From contig NC_090210.1 of the NCBI RefSeq assembly GCF_033026475.1, positions 19,995,894 through 20,059,893 on the forward strand: a DNA stretch of 64,000 nt, in the 5' to 3' direction. The translations under genes and the position numbers were made by a program. Below, one piece after another: positions 3,835 to 10,339 of this stretch. The stretch's first letter is position 1, and each line of letters begins with the position of its first letter. The notes under the pieces are model-generated. The model was not told where the DNA came from and ran no database searches. It saw nothing but the letters and a program-made list of their open reading frames with translations. Source of the DNA: Channa argus. Lineage: Eukaryota.

Positions 3835-3995
3835 AATAATAATTATTATTGTTTTTGTTATTTATATATGATTATTAATTATATATAGTTACTGTATATA
3901 CACACAACAACAACAACAATAAGAAGAATTATTATATTATTATATTTTATTAAATATTTATTATATTATATATTTATTAGTCCTTCAAGTATATA
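3835..3995. repeat. AT-rich low-complexity / (AAC)n-containing region
   Basis: aataattattattg…acaacaacaacaacaataagaagaattattatattattatatttt…. Confidence 0.6.
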
Positions 3996-4799
3996 GATTG
4001 ATGCTAATTGTTTCAAGCTCACTTTTTAGCCTGACTTTGAAAATGCCATTTTTAATTACCAGCATTTTTAAACTGTGACATTTTCACTTTTAACTGAGGA
4101 ATCCTAATCCACAGGAAGTACGTTGCCTGTGGAATGTTTGACGTATTAAGTAGTATAAAATGAGAATGCCCACAGGGTTTAGGACAGTCCCGGTTCAGCT
4201 CTTAACTGCTCCCCGGTGGTGAGCAGCTGTAATCGTCCAAAACGCCAAAGAAAATCTGTGATCCTGACAATGTCCAGCCTGTTCTTGCTGTAGATTAACT
4301 GATATCCAACACGCCTCTAAGAAACTGAGGACGCAGACTAAATCACTCGTTTCTCTTCCTCCATAATTCGAAGCTTTGAAGTTTGCCTAACCAGTGTATA
4401 AGGAGGCGTTTCACCTATTTCAGCAGAAGACAGTTTAGCATTTTTCGGCTTTGCTTGGAAAATCCTTCCTCAGCGCCAAAGGCACAGTGTCACAGTGCAT
4501 CTTCTTTTTTGGGAAATGCCTTTTTCTAGTTTAAAGTGCAGTTTAATTTTCAGACCTAACAGCATCAATTTCTTTGGTCAGTAAATACCAGGAAGAAGAA
4601 ATCCCCCATTTAAAAACACTACAGCGAACATATGAAGTATCAGTAGGAAAATCAAAGTGCAACCATTGAACCAGAGGAAGTAGTTATGGCTGATGTTAAA
4701 CCTGAGAACTCAGACCTGGAAAAAAACCTGTTTGATTGTGTCCTGTTGAGAGACACATTGTTAAATAAATGAACTGCACAATAACTTTGTCCACTGACG

Positions 4800-6428
4800 C
4801 TAAATATACAGTCCGTCTCCCAGCAGGGCGTTGGCGCGGGGTCGATTTCCTCTGCGGCTATGTTCGTGTTGTCTGTCCCTCCTCCATCTGTCTCCGTCCT
4901 CCCTCCTTTTCCCCCTCTTCGTCTCCTCCTCCTCCTCCCCATCACCTCCTGCTCTCTCAGCCTGCCTCCCCACACTCAGTCTGCTCCCTCGTTTCTCATC
5001 TCCTCTCTCCCTCCAGTCTTCGCACCGGGCCGTCGCTCCCCCGCGGTGGCTCGTCTTTGAGTTGGACTCCTCCGTGCTGCTCCTCCACTCTCGCTTCCTT
5101 GATGCTGCTTCTTCACTTCGATGTGACTCGTTCCCCCCGTCACTTTTCCTGTGTTTGTCTCTTTTCATCGCTCTTTCTGACTCACTCTTAGATTTTGTTG
5201 CTTCTGTAATTTCCCTCTTCTCCTCTGTCCTGTTTGCGTTCTCAGCCCTCCACTCATTCACTGCTCTGTCCTCCTCTGTCCCCGTCCAGCTGTCCCTCCC
5301 CACGTCTCTGCTGCTGCTTCCTTTCTGCTCATCGGTTTCTGTCATTTCAGGTTTGCTCCCTCCTTCTCCATCTTCTCTGTTGCTCGTGCTGTTATGCCTC
5401 CTTGTGCCATGACTTTCTACTCCTTTGTCTATATTCACTGATCTCCATTCGGGCTTTATTCTTCTGAGATCCTCTCTGCTCCTCATGCCTCCTTGACTGT
5501 CTCTCTGTGTTTTCACCTGTCCACCCCTGTCCTCCCTCTCTGAATTACCTGATTTATTCTTATCTTCCACCTTTTTGTCTTTTTCAACCGTTTTTGTGTT
5601 TGTACCCGAATCTTCTGATTCTTTGTCTTTTTGATTTTCTTTCTGAGGCTGTTCTTCCACAACCCCTGTAGCTGCTTTGACACTTTTCTCTGTCTCATCA
5701 GGAACCTTCTCTAATGTGGATTCAATCTTGTTTTTAACCTCTCCTTGTTCCTTCTTCCCTTCTTTCTTTGCACTTGACTCGTCCTTCCTGTCCTTTTTCT
5801 CTCCATCTCCATGTTCCTTTGTTTTCTTTTCCTTTTTCCCCTTAAATTTCACATTGTCTTTCCCCATCTCCTCACTCTTCTTCTGCTCTTCTGCAACCTT
5901 CTTGTCCAGTTTCTCCTCCATGAGGTCCAGCTCCTCCTCCAGCTTAGCCAGCTTCTTTAAATCCCACTCCAGATCATATTCAACCTCCACCTCCACCTCC
6001 TCAATCTCCTCATACTCTTCCACCTCAATGCCGTCCATTGTTTTCTGCAGCTGCGTCTTCACCTTGTTCAGTTCCAGCACACCGTCTTGAAGGTCTTTAC
6101 ACACCTCCCTGATCTTGGCGGCAAATTTTGTTTTAGCACCTTTGCGGAGCTCGTGGGAGTCTTTGGCGAGGAAGAAAACATCCAGAGCCAGGAACAGAGC
6201 TGACATGATGCCTGTGGTGAGGCTGATGACCTGGGCAGCTTTGGCAGCGCCGCCAGCGGCGCCCAAAACATGCACGGTGCTAATGAGTTTGTCCGTGTTG
6301 ATTACCAGCTCTTTTCCAGCGCGACCACCCTCCCTCACCACATGCTTGACACTGTGGTTCAGAGCTTTTTTGGCAGCACTTTGAGAATATTGCTCAAAAT
6401 CCCACTCCTGCAGCGTGTCCATACCCTC
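4800..6428 (-). CDS. APOL-B terminal exon: ApoL C-terminal half (SALFLALDVFFLAKDSHELRKGAKTKFAAKIREV) plus ~400-aa E/K/R/D/S/G-rich low-complexity tail; stop at 4800-4802
   Basis: Acceptor cctctcgtag|GAGGGTATGGAC. Equals ORF 4800..6422(-). Conserved APOL C-terminal motifs ([VL]D..[FY]L...S..L..GAK[ST]..A..[LI]R). The tail is purine-rich on the coding strand. Confidence 0.6.
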   Translation of the reverse strand, partial: EGMDTLQEWDFEQYSQSAAKKALNHSVKHVVREGGRAGKELVINTDKLISTVHVLGAAGGAAKAAQVISLTTGIMSALFLALDVFFLAKDSHELRKGAKTKFAAKIREVCKDLQDGVLELNKVKTQLQKTMDGIEVEEYEEIEEVEVEVEYDLEWDLKKLAKLEEELDLMEEKLDKKVAEEQKKSEEMGKDNVKFKGKKEKKTKEHGDGEKKDRKDESSAKKEGKKEQGEVKNKIESTLEKVPDETEKSVKAATGVVEEQPQKENQKDKESEDSGTNTKTVEKDKKVEDKNKSGNSEREDRGGQVKTQRDSQGGMRSREDLRRIKPEWRSVNIDKGVESHGTRRHNSTSNREDGEGGSKPEMTETDEQKGSSSRDVGRDSWTGTEEDRAVNEWRAENANRTEEKREITEATKSKSESERAMKRDKHRKSDGGNESHRSEEAASRKREWRSSTEESNSKTSHRGGATARCEDWRERGDEKRGSRLSVGRQAERAGGDGEEEEETKRGKRREDGDRWRRDRQHEHSRRGNRPRANALLGDGLYI

Positions 6429-6838
6429 CTACGAGAGGCACAGAGACAAGGAGGAGAGTCAATATTGTCTCAGTGAGTTTACTATACTAACTTCAAGTAT
6501 TCCATTCCAACATTTTTGAAATGGATGCTGTTAATCACACTAAGGGAGTGATGAGTTTAAAAAGGTCAAAGGTTTCTGTTAGCTAGAGATCTGCAGTGCA
6601 ACGAAACCAGCAGCTGGTAAAGGTGAAGCAAATCCATAACAGCACATCATCATTTAGTAGGTGATTATAGTGAGTTTTACACTGCTGCTGAACAAAAACA
6701 AATCACTCCTATTTTCACATTTTAGTACCAAACGATTTCCAGTTAAAGCTAACAACCTCAGTTTTGTCAGATGTCAGAAAGATGGATAAGAGGCTGCGTG
6801 AAGGCACCAGCTGCAAATTAGCCCAAACATTATCTTAC

Positions 6839-7253
6839 CTGCACAAATTCCAAACACTCTCTGATGTCTTTGATCTCTTCCTGGTAGCCCTGGATCATCT
6901 TCTCCACTTTCTTTCTGTCCATGCTGGAGTGAACCGTGTCCGTGATGTTTGCAGTCGCCGAGGTGATGCTGCCTGCTGTCGCCACGCTGATCCCCACTGC
7001 CGTGACAATCACGGAGGCACCAAAAGTGAAAGGCGCCAGAATGAGCCCCGTGATTGTAGCCACACTGCCCGCCACACTGGCCACTCCTCCACCCACAGCG
7101 GCCCGCACCGTTTTCTTGTGGAACTGATCTGCAGCGTCAGCCAAAGCCAGAAGCTCCAGGATGCGATGCTGTAAAGATGCACCACGCTGGTTGAAGAGCT
7201 GCACAAACAGACGGGCTGCCAGGTAGACTCGATCAGCTGCCTGCTCCATGATA
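6839..7253 (-). CDS. APOL-B exon: ApoL domain N-terminal half (VASVAGSVATITGLILAPFTFGASVIVTAVGISVATAGSITSA...SMDRKKVEKMIQGYQEEIKDIRECLEFVQ)
   Basis: Acceptor ccacctctcgcctctcccctcag|TATCATG, donor GTGCAG|gtaaga. Matches ORF 6830..7249(-). Strong similarity to the human APOL1 membrane-addressing/pore region (ISSGILTLVGMGLAPFTEGGSLVL...). Confidence 0.75.
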
Positions 7254-7423
7254 CTGAGGGGAGAGGCGAGAGGTGGACGGTTTGAAACTCACAATTGTGT
7301 GTAAATAAACAAAAATAAATAAGTATCCGCTTTCAGGCCTTTGGGAGCTAAATAATCTAACACTTTAATGCAAAATAAATGAACGCTTTTTTAATGCAGA
7401 AACACAAGAAGGATCATTCTTAC

Positions 7424-7469
7424 ATTTCTTCGTCCTGGGAGTTGGACGTCTCATTCCATTCTGTCCAAC
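7424..7469 (-). CDS. APOL-B exon (G)WTEWNETSNSQDEEI
   Basis: Acceptor ttaag|GTTGG, donor AAAT|gtaaga. Frame joins the flanking exons exactly. Homologous to paralog A exon 23390-23339. Confidence 0.55.
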
Positions 7470-7577
7470 CTTAAAAACCACCAGCAGATATTAGTAGCTT
7501 GGGACTCATTTCCACACTTTTTCCATATAATATTTTGAAATACTTTCAAAATTAAAAGTGAGCATTGTCACACTAAC

Positions 7578-7614
7578 CTTTGACTGTGTTCCACCACTCC
7601 ATCAATTCACTTTC
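7578..7614 (-). CDS. APOL-B exon ESELMEWWNTVK(G)
   Basis: Acceptor gttttcag|GAAAG, donor AAAG|gttagt. Conserved in paralog A (DAENLMEWWNTVE). Confidence 0.6.
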
Positions 7615-7684
7615 CTGAAAACAAAGACATTTGAGATGACAATTTATCTGTTGTGTATGTGGAGTTAAAACTGTTTTTACACAC

Positions 7685-7759
7685 CTGCTCAGATTCCAGA
7701 GGGTTGTCTTCAGTTGGGTAAGGTGCCATCTCCACAGGCTGGACCTCCACTGTGTCCTC
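7685..7759 (-). CDS. APOL-B exon EDTVEVQPVEMAPYPTEDNPLESEQ
   Basis: Acceptor ttccag|GAGGAC, donor GAGCAG|gtgtgt. 75 nt, phase 0-0. Confidence 0.55.
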
Positions 7760-8015
7760 CTGGAAATACTTAACATAACTTATCACACAGGGTTAGAGTT
7801 TCTACAGTCTGTATATTTGTCATGCACCAAAGTGTGTCTATTTGTATTTCCCACTGTCACACAAAATCTCTTCTGACAGATTTTATGTCAAACAAAGAGT
7901 GAGAGACTTTTTAATGTGGCATAAAATGTTTTCAAAATGGTATATGTCCGTAAGTGGCGAATAAAGAAGCTTGACTGTAAAAATGTAAAGCTAATTTTCT
8001 GACTAATGTTCTGAC

Positions 8016-8078
8016 CTGCGATTGGTTCAGTTGACACAGCTCCACAGTCTCTTCAATAATAGGCATCTTGTCTGAAGG
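8016..8078 (-). CDS. APOL-B exon PSDKMPIIEETVELCQLNQSQ
   Basis: AG acceptor, donor CGCAG|gtcaga. 63 nt, phase 0-0. Confidence 0.45.
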
Positions 8079-8182
8079 CTGCGTTGATACATAACCATAT
8101 TGTCATAATTATAAACCAACCATTAGCCAAATAAAAGCTGATTCAATCGTGTAGTTTAAAGTATTAGAGCAGCAATAAATAC

Positions 8183-8245
8183 CTGTGACGATAAAGTAAC
8201 TGTGGGAATTTGGGGAAAAGTTTTCTTGATTCTGAATGACACAAC
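8183..8245 (-). CDS. APOL-B exon VVSFRIKKTFPQIPTVTLSSQ
   Basis: Acceptor ttctcag|GTTGTG, donor CACAG|gtattt. 63 nt. Confidence 0.4.
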
Positions 8246-8394
8246 CTGAGAAAAATGGAAAAAAAAAACTTTAGATCCCAAACAATGTAAAGATTAATTT
8301 GAATCCTTTGAATTACCTGCATTTATGTATGTGCGTATTGAGATCATTACTGAAACATTCAGTGTGGTTTGGAAAACGTAAGTGAACCTAAAGA

Positions 8395-8565
8395 CTGTGA
8401 ATATATCAGTAGAAGGATGCTGAGGTTGGAGCTGCCAGGCAGGAGGTCTAGAGGAAGACCAAAGAGGAGATTTATGGATGTAGTGACAGAGGACATGAAG
8501 TTAGTTGGTGTGAGAGAAGAGGATGCAGAGGACAGTTCTGTTTGTCTATACTTCTGACTTAGAGG
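8395..8565 (+). mobile_element. LINE (non-LTR retrotransposon) ORF2 C-terminal/3' fragment inside an APOL-B intron
   Basis: ORF 8369..8557(+) contains ELPGRRSRGRPKRRFMDVVTEDMKLVGVREEDAEDS, the stereotyped GRPK[RK]RWMD…EDARDR tail of many vertebrate LINE ORF2 proteins. Confidence 0.6.
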
Positions 8566-8710
8566 AAGATCAGATCATGTTTAATATCCAGCTAAAGTAG
8601 AACATTATAAATCCAAAGGGTTCACATACGTTTTCTTGGGTCTGCATTTAAGATATCGAATTAATCCAATTTTCACCACCTGTCACCATTGGGACGTTAC
8701 TGCAACTCAC

Positions 8711-8782
8711 GTGTCTCTTCTTCTTGATGGTTCTCCTGCGTCTCAACTTGTCTCCGTCCAAATCCTCCTTGTCCTCACTTTC
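8711..8782 (-). CDS. APOL-B exon ESEDKEDLDGDKLRRRRTIKKKRH (basic, NLS-like)
   Basis: Acceptor cttgtcttgcag|GAAAG, donor ACAC|gtgagt. 72 nt. Confidence 0.55.
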
Positions 8783-9044
8783 CTGCAAGACAAGAGAGAA
8801 AAAAATGAAACAGAAACATGCACGTTGCTAAAGGGTTTTAGGGATCGCTAACAGCATTATGAAAGTACGAGGGTGGAGATCATGCCTGGTGTTCAACAGC
8901 TTTGGGCGTCCTCCTGAACATCCCAGCAAACCCGCCTTTTTTCTCCTGTTCAAGAATGAAACGTGAAACATGAATCTGAATCGAAGTCTCAGAAATATTA
9001 AAACATCGGTCAAACTACAAAACAGAGCAACACAAGAGACTTAC

Positions 9045-9116
9045 CTTTGTCGTGGTTTTAGCATCAGAAAGATCACTGCTACTTGGCAGAAATTCCCCGT
9101 ACGCTGAAAGGTTCTC
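9045..9116 (-). CDS. APOL-B module exon (S-rich type) ENLSAYGEFLPSSSDLSDAKTTTK
   Basis: Acceptor ttaaag|GAGAAC, donor ACAAAG|gtaagt. 72 nt. Confidence 0.55.
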
Positions 9117-9844
9117 CTTTAAAATACAAGTACATTAATTCAGTTGCTTTTTAATTGATGTTTACCCACATCTCTATGGTTAAATTTTTTTTTTTTATGA
9201 ATTTATCCAACTACTAATGTAAAAAACTCTTTTAATACTTCAATACTTTTAGTACTTAAATTTCAAATGCAGGACTTTCATTTGCAATAGTGATAAACAG
9301 TTTTCCCACTGTGATGATGATACTTTTACTTATAGGATCAGAGTATTCGTTCTGTTACAGTAGCTGTTTACAAGTTTAAAGACATTTTTTTTAAAAAGTA
9401 CCTGTCACTTTAATGCTGTTGTTTCCACACCTAGTATCTACAGTAAGAGTTTGTTGGTCTTTAGCTTATGTTGAATAATAGAATTTGAAATAATCCCCAA
9501 TAAATAGTTTCTCAGATTGAAGAGTTCAGATTTCTGCAGAAACCTCATTAATAGGGCACATTTGGAACCAGTCTGGACTAGACGTGTACATTCATCTTAT
9601 CAACAGCATCAGGTTTTACAGTGTATAAAATAATGTGTTTTTTTTTTTTAAAGACTCTTTCAGAATGATGCCCAGAAAAATGACTTGCACTGTTGTACTT
9701 AAAAGTGTTAGAGCATGGACTCAATATAGACTTTTTGTAGCAAGTACTTGGACTTTAGTACTGAAATTGTGAAGAGTTCTTTCTCAACTTTCTATGCACC
9801 TAAATCTTAAAATTTTATTTATGTTCTCATGCATCTCATGAAAC

Positions 9845-9962
9845 GGGAACACTTCTCATAGCACTTTGCTTTGATGTTTTCTCCTGGACTTAGATTTTTG
9901 CCTTGCTTTGTACCTCAGCTGTAAGTTGCTTTGGATAAAAATCCAAATGTCTAGATGTAAAT
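9845..9962 (+). mobile_element. Teleost SINE copy (tail …tgtacctcagctgtaagttgctttggataaaaatc…)
   Basis: Near-identical core shared with copies at 20690-20790 and 39860-39960 (ttgccttgtacctcacttgtaagtcgctttggataaaagcgtctgctaaatgactaaatgtaaatg). Confidence 0.6.
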
Positions 9963-9977
9963 GTGTATTTGCGTCAC

Positions 9978-10040
9978 CTCTGAAGTGTCTGCGAGACTGT
10001 CCCAGCTGGCAGACAGTTCCTTTGAGCTGCTGAGAGGATC
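9978..10040 (-). CDS. APOL-B module exon (S-rich) DPLSSSKELSASWDSLADTSE
   Basis: Acceptor ttctgcag|GATCC, donor TCAGAG|gtgacg. 63 nt. Confidence 0.55.
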
Positions 10041-10182
10041 CTGCAGAATAATAAAAGCAATTATAAATCAGTCAGGTTTATTTCAGGTCATTTCTGGAGA
10101 ATTTAACCAATATGAATTCTATAGGATGATTTGCCTAAAAATAAAAGGGTTTTTAAACAACTGTTCAGTTTCGTTTGGTCAC

Positions 10183-10254
10183 CTCAGTAGCAATGGAGCG
10201 TGGCGCCGGTTTAGGAGACTTTTTAAAGATACCTGCCAGTCGTCTTGTTTTCTC
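10183..10254 (-). CDS. APOL-B module exon (FKK type) EKTRRLAGIFKKSPKPAPRSIATE
   Basis: Acceptor gtgtttcag|GAG, donor ACTGAG|gtgacc. 72 nt. Confidence 0.6.
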
Positions 10255-10339
10255 CTGAAACACATTAATAATAAATAACAATCAATGGCAGAAAAGAGAA
10301 AACCCGGCTGTTATTGTGATAATTTGATGACACCAGTAC

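Follow-up and report, generated by a model that had tools for sequence, protein, structure and literature searches.

The apold1a gene and its long last coding exon

The window, by which we mean the whole stretch of 64,000 nucleotides of Channa argus DNA that was analysed (contig NC_090210.1, positions 19,995,894 to 20,059,893), contains on its minus strand an apold1a gene whose coding part is split into numerous small exons followed by a long last coding exon. The gene was located by tblastn searches of the window with P0001, P0002 (Mastacembelus), and P0006. P0001 is the deposited Channa argus protein of 990 aa named 'APOLD1' (locus CM015725.1, gene span 9190 nt), which is 100% identical over the ApoL part and the tail, tail included; the deposited gene model skips two small upstream exons. 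The features needed for the gene and for its comparison are the following.

4800..13993, minus strand: coding part of the apold1a gene
6839..7252, minus strand: exon coding for a helix and a G/A/V/I-rich hydrophobic hairpin, the N-terminal half of the ApoL domain, donor CAG/GTAAGA, from tblastn and Pfam
6428..4800, minus strand: last coding exon, acceptor AG at 6430-6429
6039..6428, minus strand: opening 130 codons of that exon, which supply the C-terminal half of the ApoL domain and end in ...KFAAKIREVCKDLQDGVLELNKVKTQLQKT (LZ2-like helix; AF2 helix 549-579 of P0001)
4802..4800, minus strand: stop codon TAG, where the purine-rich tract ends
3946..4799, minus strand: inferred 3'UTR; the predicted poly(A) signals in Channa are ATTAAA, at 4547..4542 and again at 4056..4051, and a cluster of AATAAA at 3978..3946
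22274..23260, minus strand: paralog A, used for comparison, with the ApoL domain in one exon, 40-52% identical to apold1a

The Pfam ApoL profile (PF05461) matches with 106.8 bits against a cut-off of 25.9, over profile positions 49-296 of 298, and the match stops about 10 aa before the tail starts. Between the AF2 helices lies a G/A/V/I/T-rich stretch (AAVGGGVASVAGSVATITGLILAPFTFGASVIVTAVGISVATAG), a putative membrane hairpin that is itself modelled with low pLDDT. The original prediction had treated the gene as an APOL. This assignment does not hold, as the best protein matches are teleost apold1a proteins, many of them 84-90% identical in the ApoL part, and the deposited Channa protein carries the name APOLD1. 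Judged by its sequence, the gene is a member of the ApoL-domain family but not a canonical APOL, and it belongs to the teleost apold1a orthologue group; the tie of this group to tetrapod APOLD1 is one of source annotation names only.

An open frame that composition does not explain

The minus-strand open reading frame 6422..4800 encodes 540 aa. After ...ELNKVKTQLQKT, which ends at 6039, the same frame stays open for a further 412 codons (6038..4803), so the extension of about 1.2 kb that had been predicted past the ApoL domain is indeed there, with all of the peptides quoted from it; its coordinates, given before as 4800-6000, need only a small adjustment. Paralog A ends exactly 35 aa past the equivalent point (...ELNGIRVELQST), in line with the approximate figure proposed earlier. 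The predicted richness in E, K, D, R, S, and G was confirmed by the residue counts of the tail (E 75, K 53, R 44, G 37, S 35, D 32). The description of a strand with almost no T was slightly overstated: on the sense strand, the tail and its stop codon (1239 nt) contain A 491, G 451, C 164, and T 133, which is 76% purine with T low, at 11%. This purine richness is mainly the result of the codons for E, K, R, D, G, and S, and there is an extra purine bias at synonymous sites besides (73% purine at four-fold sites of the tail versus 47% in the ApoL exons). The sense 3'UTR has another composition (A.31, C.18, G.20, T.31), and the purine tract stops at the stop codon.

Such a composition makes it reasonable to ask whether the stretch is a 3'UTR or other noncoding sequence whose frame is open for no other reason than the scarcity of stops in purine-rich DNA. 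With T at that level, dinucleotide-preserving shuffles of the tail do yield open runs of about 107 codons on average. However, the longest run in 2000 shuffles was 261 codons versus the 412 observed, and zero stops was reached in none of 5000 shuffles, which contained 15.9 +/- 3.6 stops with a minimum of 5. The tail DNA is not poor in stop triplets as such: it contains 42, every one out of frame (the frame of the ApoL domain has 0, the two remaining sense frames have 13 and 29; P of about 4e-8). The tails of Anabas, Cottoperca, and Pelmatolapia behave similarly, with 0 in-frame stops versus 10-42 off frame. These results show that the open frame is maintained by selection and not by composition. 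Moreover, a 3'UTR lies downstream of the stop codon, and the first in-frame stop past the ApoL domain is the one at 4802..4800, at the far end of the tail. With no stop before 4802 once the ApoL domain has been read, any ribosome that translates an mRNA with this stretch is bound to go on through the tail. Together with the conservation of the frame to one C-terminal motif in 22 species, the indel pattern, and the dN/dS values below 1 described below, this refutes the untranslated reading, the accidental open 3'UTR of the original prediction, to which we assign next to no probability.

Conservation and selection in fishes

In the tail alignment of teleost apold1a proteins, the frame is kept through a series of ordered islands to a shared end, DGLxI followed by the stop, in at least 22 species. 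Tails of at least 250 aa were found in 44 of 119 related proteins; 27 of these 44 end in GLxI and 34 in I. Public gene models that simply read on until a stop is reached do not count as independent evidence for a coding tail. The tails of euteleost orthologues measure 345-485 aa, share the islands, and finish in DGLxI. On these sequences, the long tail is the rule for the teleost apold1a orthologue group and not an oddity. That it would be unusual for an APOL protein, as had been suggested, is correct relative to mammalian APOL and APOLD1, but within its own orthologue group it is usual. Some orthologue models have early or different ends (129 aa, 212 aa, Betta X2, goodeid X3).

An exhaustive profile search with the tail found 22 proteins at an E value of 0.001 or lower among 1.84e9. 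All matches with a named source are euteleost fish proteins, several of them named apold1a or si:rp71-1g18.13, and nearly every match sits at the C terminus of its protein. The Channa tail itself matches the profile with 207 bits (E value of 3e-56). The long charged tails of Albula, Aplochiton, and Hucho did not match the tail profile. A word-indexed protein search with tail alignment A1 gave zero matches, likely because its 8000 candidates were filled by unrelated charged low-complexity proteins.

The search for frame-shifting indels in orthologues that the original prediction had put forward came out on the side of a coding tail, as did the dN/dS comparison. In nucleotide alignments made blind to the protein, gaps were mostly multiples of three (15/19, 8/12, 8/13, 12/14, 9/9, and 17/17), and in four genomes the tail is a single uninterrupted exon stretch. 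The dN/dS ratio was 0.18-0.56 for the tail versus 0.08-0.20 for the ApoL part, values obtained from alignable columns only and with dS near saturation (0.6-1.4). In these sequence comparisons, the tail is shown to be under purifying selection that is weaker than that on the ApoL domain.

The tail in transcripts

Two Logan contigs, L005 (SRR28473478) and L006 (SRR14563179), are intron-less cDNAs from two other fishes that contain the whole tail open reading frame up to DGLNI and the stop. Both run unbroken over junctions that hold introns in four genomes, and after the tail stop they continue with a 3'UTR of 1031 nt in L005 and at least 643 nt in L006. This shows that in other species the tail is contained in spliced mRNA.

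It could be argued that in Channa the main mRNA ends or is spliced inside the tail and that the full 412-aa tail is a minor product. There are two AATAAA hexamers inside the tail, at 5558 and 5460, and the cryptic donor raised by the original prediction has candidates there, CAG/GTAATT at 5548 (score of 9.2) and another donor-like site at 5516; several of the shorter or different orthologue models mentioned above, such as those of 129 aa and 212 aa and Betta X2, would fit as well. However, the cDNA contigs of two species run through all of this, and the internal hexamers lie within codons (K-N-K and R-I-K). The distal islands and the last residues are, moreover, the best conserved parts of the distal tail, and such conservation requires regular translation. 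We therefore consider a predominantly short product in Channa improbable, although shorter isoforms may occur.

Anatomy of the tail

The tail can be divided into four regions, the last of which carries the C-terminal motif.

5961..6038, minus strand: acidic head MDGIEVEEYEEIEEVEVEVEYDLEWD, tail aa 1-26, directly after the LZ2-like last ApoL helix, AF2 confidence low
5868..5960, minus strand: heptad (coiled-coil-like) helix LKKLAKLEEELDLMEEKLDKKVAEEQKK, tail aa 27-57, about 31 aa, predicted as AF2 helix 605-635
5682..5867, minus strand: K/E-rich low-complexity spacer, tail aa 58-119, aligning poorly and variable in length, predicted coil
4803..5681, minus strand: R/E/S/G-rich region with conserved islands, tail aa 120-412, about 290 aa, from alignments, profile, and AF2
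4803..4832, minus strand: C-terminal motif NALLGDGLYI, family consensus ..LL(E/G)DGLxI-COOH, with L-x-I nearly invariant

The first 40 residues of the tail have a net charge of about -15, and the MDGIEVE.. sequence recurs in every orthologue; the paralogue group with short tails has it as well. By their patterns, EEYEEI in the acidic head (6020..6003) is a candidate LIR-like motif and LEWD (at about 5972..5961) a candidate kinesin W-acidic motif; LEW(D/N) is present in Channa, Anabas, and Monopterus, and (L/F)ESDP stands at the same place in other species. The heptad helix reaches a pLDDT of up to 88 as a block in the AF2 model, has the consensus DPKKLAELEQELDLLEEKLDKK over 22 species, and is found in zebrafish too. 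Within the island region, the two islands that stand out most clearly are EDRAVNEWRAEN (5273..5238), which may form a weak helix (AF2 834-845, pLDDT of about 50), and EKRGSR. In the latter the Ser is nearly invariant, and KRGS at 4994..4983 has the pattern of a basophilic-kinase site (KRxS), which makes it a candidate phosphorylation site. Further islands are the (E/D)W(R/K) motifs and one of the RRHSS type. The LYI-COOH end has the hydrophobic-x-hydrophobic pattern of a candidate PDZ ligand. The conservation of these short linear motif patterns (LIR, W-acidic, KRxS, and PDZ ligand) varies between species.

Residues 640-835 and 846-990 of P0001 have AF2 pLDDT values below 50; in this prediction the tail is disordered except for two helices, one confident and one weak. 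Charged residues make up a fraction of 0.50 of the tail and are well mixed, and the net charge per residue is -0.02. The genuine disordered charged tail that had been proposed as one of two possibilities is supported by the frame-specific absence of stops, the frame and end kept in 22 species, the triplet indels, the dN/dS ratios below 1, the cDNAs, and the predicted disorder. Two more specific descriptions were tried and rejected. Blocky charge patterning was not found, as the charge distribution is the same as that of shuffled sequences (z of -1.1 to 0.2). An ER/K single alpha-helix (SAH) spacer does not fit either, since the AF2 helix is only 31 aa long (605-635) and the K/E-rich part, in which G, P, and S occur, is modelled as coil at pLDDT values under 50.

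A translated tail may still be neutral low-complexity sequence, produced by slippage of purine codons and tolerated rather than used. Its length varies between species, and in poeciliids the K/E spacer is lengthened by repeats of about 25 aa. The purine excess at four-fold sites, a dN/dS above that of the ApoL domain, and the absence of most of the tail in Cypriniformes would also fit, and searches for known domains in the tail gave no Pfam match and no PDB sequence match. Nevertheless, the dN/dS ratio is not about 1; salmonids, smelts, cods, and percomorphs all have the islands in the same order and the C-terminal end; and in the Channa tail there are no tandem repeat arrays of any size, only tiny ones of 16-47 nt, so the tail is not a repeat array. 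For the tail as a whole we find neutrality unlikely, if slightly less so than a mostly truncated product; probably it holds for the spacer only.

A possible role for the tail

Taken together, the stretch 6038..4803 on the minus strand very probably encodes a C-terminal tail that is translated as part of Apold1a in Channa argus. Apold1a belongs to the APOLD1 group of ApoL-domain proteins and is a putative membrane protein. The best reading is that of a translated cytosolic polyampholyte arm with short conserved motifs, and what follows on its function is inferred by analogy. Apold1a has no signal peptide and has a long hydrophilic N terminus; the hydrophobic hairpin would therefore be expected in the membrane, with both the N and the C terminus in the cytosol. 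The tail could then act as a flexible polyampholyte arm. Its heptad helix might form a pair with a second copy of itself or bind the LZ2/helix-5 region of ApoL, while partners might dock at, or phosphorylate, the conserved islands and the C-terminal end. The proposals of a docking arm, a phosphosite, and a C-terminal ligand come from motif patterns and analogy. Partners from the cytoskeleton, junctions, or trafficking would fit the published work on mammalian APOLD1, in which the protein is assigned to endothelial junctions, to the cytoskeleton, and to Weibel-Palade bodies and the LZ2/helix-5 model is proposed (PMC9973481; PMC11726835). Cypriniform orthologues manage with tails of 46-80 aa, which counts against the functional proposals.

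One may go further and imagine an old euteleost-specific module that makes a large adaptor out of a small membrane-inserted APOLD1-type protein. Its points of recruitment for cytoskeletal, motor, or junctional partners would be the (E/D)W(R/K) islands, the EKRGS serine, and the L-x-I-COOH end, and LEWD and EEYEEI might serve likewise in Channa and its relatives. The synonymous purine bias would then reflect selection at the RNA level, e.g., exonic enhancers that define the 1.6-kb terminal coding exon. The module is probably very old, because it is common to the four fish groups named above. As a whole we regard this scenario as a long shot, somewhat less improbable than the neutral or the truncated tail.

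Comparison with known systems

The teleost apold1a of public annotations (si:rp71-1g18.13) is the same gene, with no difference in kind. The tail is already in public gene models and is an ordinary but unstudied feature; a literature search for the name 'apold1a' found no paper. The purine-rich stretch is coding, and it would be wrong to mark it as an anomaly or a misannotation. The teleost paralogue group si:cabz01007802.1 and the cypriniform apold1a proteins share with Channa the ApoL domain, MDGIEVE..., the acidic patch, and the start of the heptad helix. In contrast to Channa, the former stop 28-31 aa after ApoL and the latter after the short tails given above, and neither has the spacer or the R/E/S island region.

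In composition and predicted disorder, the tail resembles neurofilament-M/H side arms, MAP1B/futsch, and arginine-rich mixed-charge domains. Automatic names of orthologues, such as 'neurofilament medium polypeptide', 'titin homolog', 'myb-like protein X', and 'microtubule-associated futsch', reflect this composition. There is no sequence relationship between the tail and the neurofilament/MAP1B-type tails, so the likeness is one of composition and possibly of working mode, but not of family.

APOLD1, or VERGE, is an endothelial early-response ApoL-domain protein. In mammals it is about 280 aa long, ends shortly after LZ2, and is not known to have either the tail of about 410 aa or the long repeat region at the N terminus. 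The fish protein exceeds this length three- to fivefold, because of its repeat-rich N terminus and its conserved, predicted disordered tail. What the mammalian and the fish proteins have in common is an ApoL domain with a helix, a putative hydrophobic hairpin, and, at its C-terminal end, a pair of helices of the HC2-LZ2 kind (Pfam; PMC11726835, which describes the ApoL domain of APOLD1). The APOLD1 literature consulted covers amniote proteins only. For studies of APOLD1 biology in fish, such as the vascular response or the bleeding disorder, it is important that the fish protein has about 400 extra conserved C-terminal residues, and that zebrafish, the usual model, is without most of them.

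RESULTS

The reading frame that continues past the ApoL domain of Channa argus apold1a was predicted either to encode a genuine disordered, charged tail or to be a 3' UTR that stays open merely since purine-rich DNA lacks stop codons. We found the open charged frame to be present, with slightly corrected coordinates, and the gene has the following features in this part of the window.

7252..6839 (-), separate exon with the upstream half of the ApoL domain
6430-6429 (-), AG acceptor of the last coding exon, which starts at 6428
6422..4800 (-), open reading frame of 540 aa (ORF scan)
6039 (-), end (...KFAAKIREVCKDLQDGVLELNKVKTQLQKT) of the C-terminal half of the ApoL domain, which takes up the first 130 codons of the last exon
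6038..4803 (-), tail, 412 codons in frame with ApoL
4802..4800 (-), stop codon TAG
4547 and 4056 (both ATTAAA) and 3978-3946 (AATAAA cluster) (-), candidate poly(A) signals past the stop (motif scan of the window)

The Pfam ApoL match (106.8 bits; cut-off, 25.9) ends about 10 aa ahead of the tail. Purines make up 76% of the sense strand of the tail, and T makes up 11%. Charged residues account for half of the tail (E 75, K 53, R 44, D 32), with G and S abundant as well. The second ApoL-domain gene of the window, paralog A (22274..23260 [-]), stops 35 aa beyond the equivalent point, in agreement with the roughly 35 aa first noted. This gene (22274..23990 [-], corresponding to L001:1-1720 of the Channa locus) has its ApoL domain within one exon. 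The Channa assembly annotates it within an 860-aa product with a further match to the beta-propeller family Beta-prop_TEP1_C; either the domains are combined in an unusual way or the gene model is a merger.

Of the 42 stop triplets in the tail DNA, 13 and 29 lie in the two alternative sense frames and 0 in the coding frame (chance of all 42 missing that frame, P ~4e-8). Dinucleotide-preserving shuffles gave 15.9 +/- 3.6 in-frame stops (5,000 shuffles; minimum, 5), and the longest stretch without a stop, over all frames of 2,000 shuffles, was 261 codons. The stop codon marks the exact end of the purine-rich tract, and the 3' UTR has an ordinary sense-strand composition. The tails of Anabas, Cottoperca, Pelmatolapia, and Channa each have 0 in-frame stops, versus 10 to 42 off frame. 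We therefore rejected the open frame as a by-product of composition, and the 3' UTR alternative is wrong.

The tails of 22 species can be aligned and show a fixed order of elements, all of which are present in Channa, with the C terminus NALLGDGLYI.

Elements of the tail in order (22-species alignment)
Acidic head: MDGIEVEEYEEIEEVEVEVEDD..(L/F)ESDP
Heptad helix: KKLAELEQELDLLEEKLDKK
K/E-rich spacer: variable in length
First islands: ..EEVLKEQSQKG.KKDKETEN.., RRHSSRS.K, ESW.R.EEERGVKDWRAE
Next islands: RKESHRS, SKRSHHRR, ER..EKRGSR.ES.RR.FERAGGEE
End: RGSR.RS.ALL.DGLxI*

The genomes of Channa, Anabas, Cottoperca, and Pelmatolapia each have the tail as a single unbroken stretch adjoining the ApoL exon. 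Frame-shifting indels among orthologues, named in the original prediction as evidence against a coding tail, were looked for in protein-blind nucleotide alignments, where gap lengths were mostly multiples of three (15/19, 8/12, 8/13, 12/14, 9/9, and 17/17; chance, one third). Nei-Gojobori dN/dS, limited to alignable codons and with dS of 0.6 to 1.4 near saturation, was 0.18 to 0.56 in the tail versus 0.08 to 0.20 in the adjacent ApoL part. The tail is under purifying selection that is less strict than that on the ApoL domain, as is usual for disordered regions. With the frame kept to a common end in all 22 species, these gaps and a dN/dS below 1, the genuine-tail alternative proved right.

Two assembled transcript contigs from other fishes, L005 (SRR28473478; 3,056 nt; 95.6% identical to an Anarhichas minor protein) and L006 (SRR14563179; 2,758 nt; 71% identical to Fundulus), contain complete, intron-less ORFs of 668 and 651 aa. 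They span exon junctions that hold introns in the window and three other genomes and therefore represent spliced mRNA. Both include the entire tail to ...DGLNI*, followed by 3' UTRs of 1,031 and 643 nt, respectively, and L005 has AATAAA 16 nt from its end. The coding status of the tail is thus shown, with these transcripts from other fishes among the evidence, and its translation in Channa itself is probable. A search for a cryptic donor past the ApoL motifs had been suggested as a check, and a donor-like boundary (CAG/GTAATT) does lie within the Channa tail, at 5548, as do AATAAA motifs at 5558 and 5460; shorter isoforms are therefore possible in Channa. The AATAAA cluster lies at the presumed end of the 3' UTR, in a very AT-rich stretch (window ~3840..3990; GC, 0.17) with simple repeats of two kinds, TA/TTA runs and (CAA)n.

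A query with ApoL and tail was 100% identical to a deposited 990-aa Channa argus protein (P0001, "Apolipoprotein L domain-containing protein 1"; CM015725.1, assembly GCA_004786185.1), whose CDS already covers the tail in full. The next-best matches were teleost apold1a (alias si:rp71-1g18.13); automatic names on many matches, such as "titin homolog," "myb-like protein X," and "neurofilament medium polypeptide," mirror the charged low-complexity tail.

Tail length from the ApoL end motif in 119 related proteins
At least 250 aa: 44 proteins, mostly acanthomorph apold1a; 34 end in I, 27 in GLxI
100-249 aa: 10 proteins, mixed, truncated models among them
40-99 aa: 47 proteins, among them cypriniform orthologues, e.g., zebrafish (46-80 aa)
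<40 aa: 18 proteins, chiefly the second teleost paralogue group si:cabz01007802.1 (28-31 aa)

When 1.84 billion representative proteins were searched with a profile built from the distal 290 aa, 22 proteins matched at E<=0.001, nearly all at their C-terminal ends. Cluster look-up of 10 of the 14 matches not previously collected gave nine with a source name (Oncorhynchus, Osmerus, Lota, Solea, Oryzias, Pungitius, Pholidichthys, Dunckerocampus, and a second Anabas copy), several being apold1a or si:rp71-1g18.13; none of the named matches lay beyond euteleost fishes. The distal tail is thus a lineage-specific extension older than the salmonid/smelt/cod/percomorph split. Pfam and PDB sequences gave no match to the tail, and models from Albula, Aplochiton, and Hucho have long charged tails that do not match the profile.

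Anabas testudineus has two tandem apold1a copies, both long tailed (L002:1-1256 and L002:4001-10193); the upstream copy ends in ...ALLGDGLYI* and the downstream copy, P0005, in ...AVLGDR*, four codons short of the conserved DGLYI. In the poeciliids Xiphophorus and Gambusia (P0038 and P0050), the K/E-rich spacer holds several copies of a unit of ~25 aa (..KKSKESVLDIFKIKKEKKEEKSMKE..), and the spacer therefore grows by amplification of repeats in some lineages; no sizeable tandem repeats were found in the Channa tail. The N-terminal third of Apold1a (~13993..8900 [-]) consists of many small exons, each encoding a version of ...KEKGGFFSGIFKKSPKP..., in which a basic stretch comes after a Gly-aromatic one; many copies also occur in the orthologues P0002 and P0006, and AlphaFold2 predicts disorder there. 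Two further small exons (8248..8183 and 8090..8004 [-]; VVSFRIKKTFPQIPTVTLSSQ and PSDKMPIIEETVELCQLNQSQ; 45 to 73% identity to orthologues) are intact in the window and missing from P0001, which has ...KKKRHYFQEDTVEV instead, so the public Channa model looks incomplete upstream of the ApoL domain.

DISCUSSION

The tail is genuine, conserved, and already in public gene models, an ordinary annotated coding region. A literature search for apold1a found no paper, and the APOL-family papers found concerned APOLD1 of amniotes only. The disordered tail of apold1a is unstudied and of low to moderate interest.

Its purine bias exceeds what amino acid composition alone explains. Four-fold degenerate sites are 73% purine in the Channa tail versus 47% in the gene's ApoL exons (63 to 66% versus 30 to 38% in the three species of L002 to L004), and AGR codons outnumber CGN codons for Arg by 36 to 8. 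Either an origin by slippage of purine-rich codons or selection on RNA would fit this bias.

AlphaFold2, run with a 30-sequence alignment (mean pLDDT, 43.8), predicted one confident tail helix, at residues 605 to 635 (tail aa 27 to 57 only; block pLDDT up to 88), a weak one at residues 834 to 845 (EDRAVNEWRAEN), and coil with pLDDT of <50 in the remainder. The tail has a pI of 5.7, a GRAVY of -1.86, a charged fraction of 0.50, and a net charge per residue of -0.02. Its first 40 aa carry a net charge of -15, and charge mixing past this acidic head did not differ from random. K prevails proximally and R distally (per 40 aa, from K 13 and R 0 near the start to K 2 and R 11 near the end), and GC rises from ~0.41 to ~0.63 over the same stretch. 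Seven tryptophans, mostly as (E/D)W(R/T), stand amid hydrophobic-poor sequence.

The distal islands may be short docking or phosphorylation sites, with the nearly invariant Ser of EKRGSR, the RRHSS-type island, the (E/D)W(R/K) motifs, and the L-x-I-COOH end as candidates. The Channa tail also has a putative LIR-like pattern, EEYEEI, and a putative kinesin-light-chain W-acidic-like pattern, LEWD (5972..5961 [-]; tail aa 23 to 26). LEWD occurs only in Channa and Anabas; here Monopterus has LEWN, and the sequence in other fishes is (L/F)ESDP.

Reviews of mammalian APOLD1 (PMC11726835; PMC9973481) divide the protein into a helix 5, a hairpin that spans the membrane, and an HC2-LZ2 helix pair. They propose that LZ2 controls how accessible helix 5 is, and they have the protein act at the cytoskeleton, at Weibel-Palade bodies, and at the junctions of endothelial cells. 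The Apold1a tail starts immediately past an LZ2-like helix, and we therefore infer that it would serve as a flexible cytosolic polyampholyte arm. All teleost copies, including short-tailed ones, keep the acidic head and heptad helix, which might associate with the basic helix-5/LZ2 region or bring about oligomerization.
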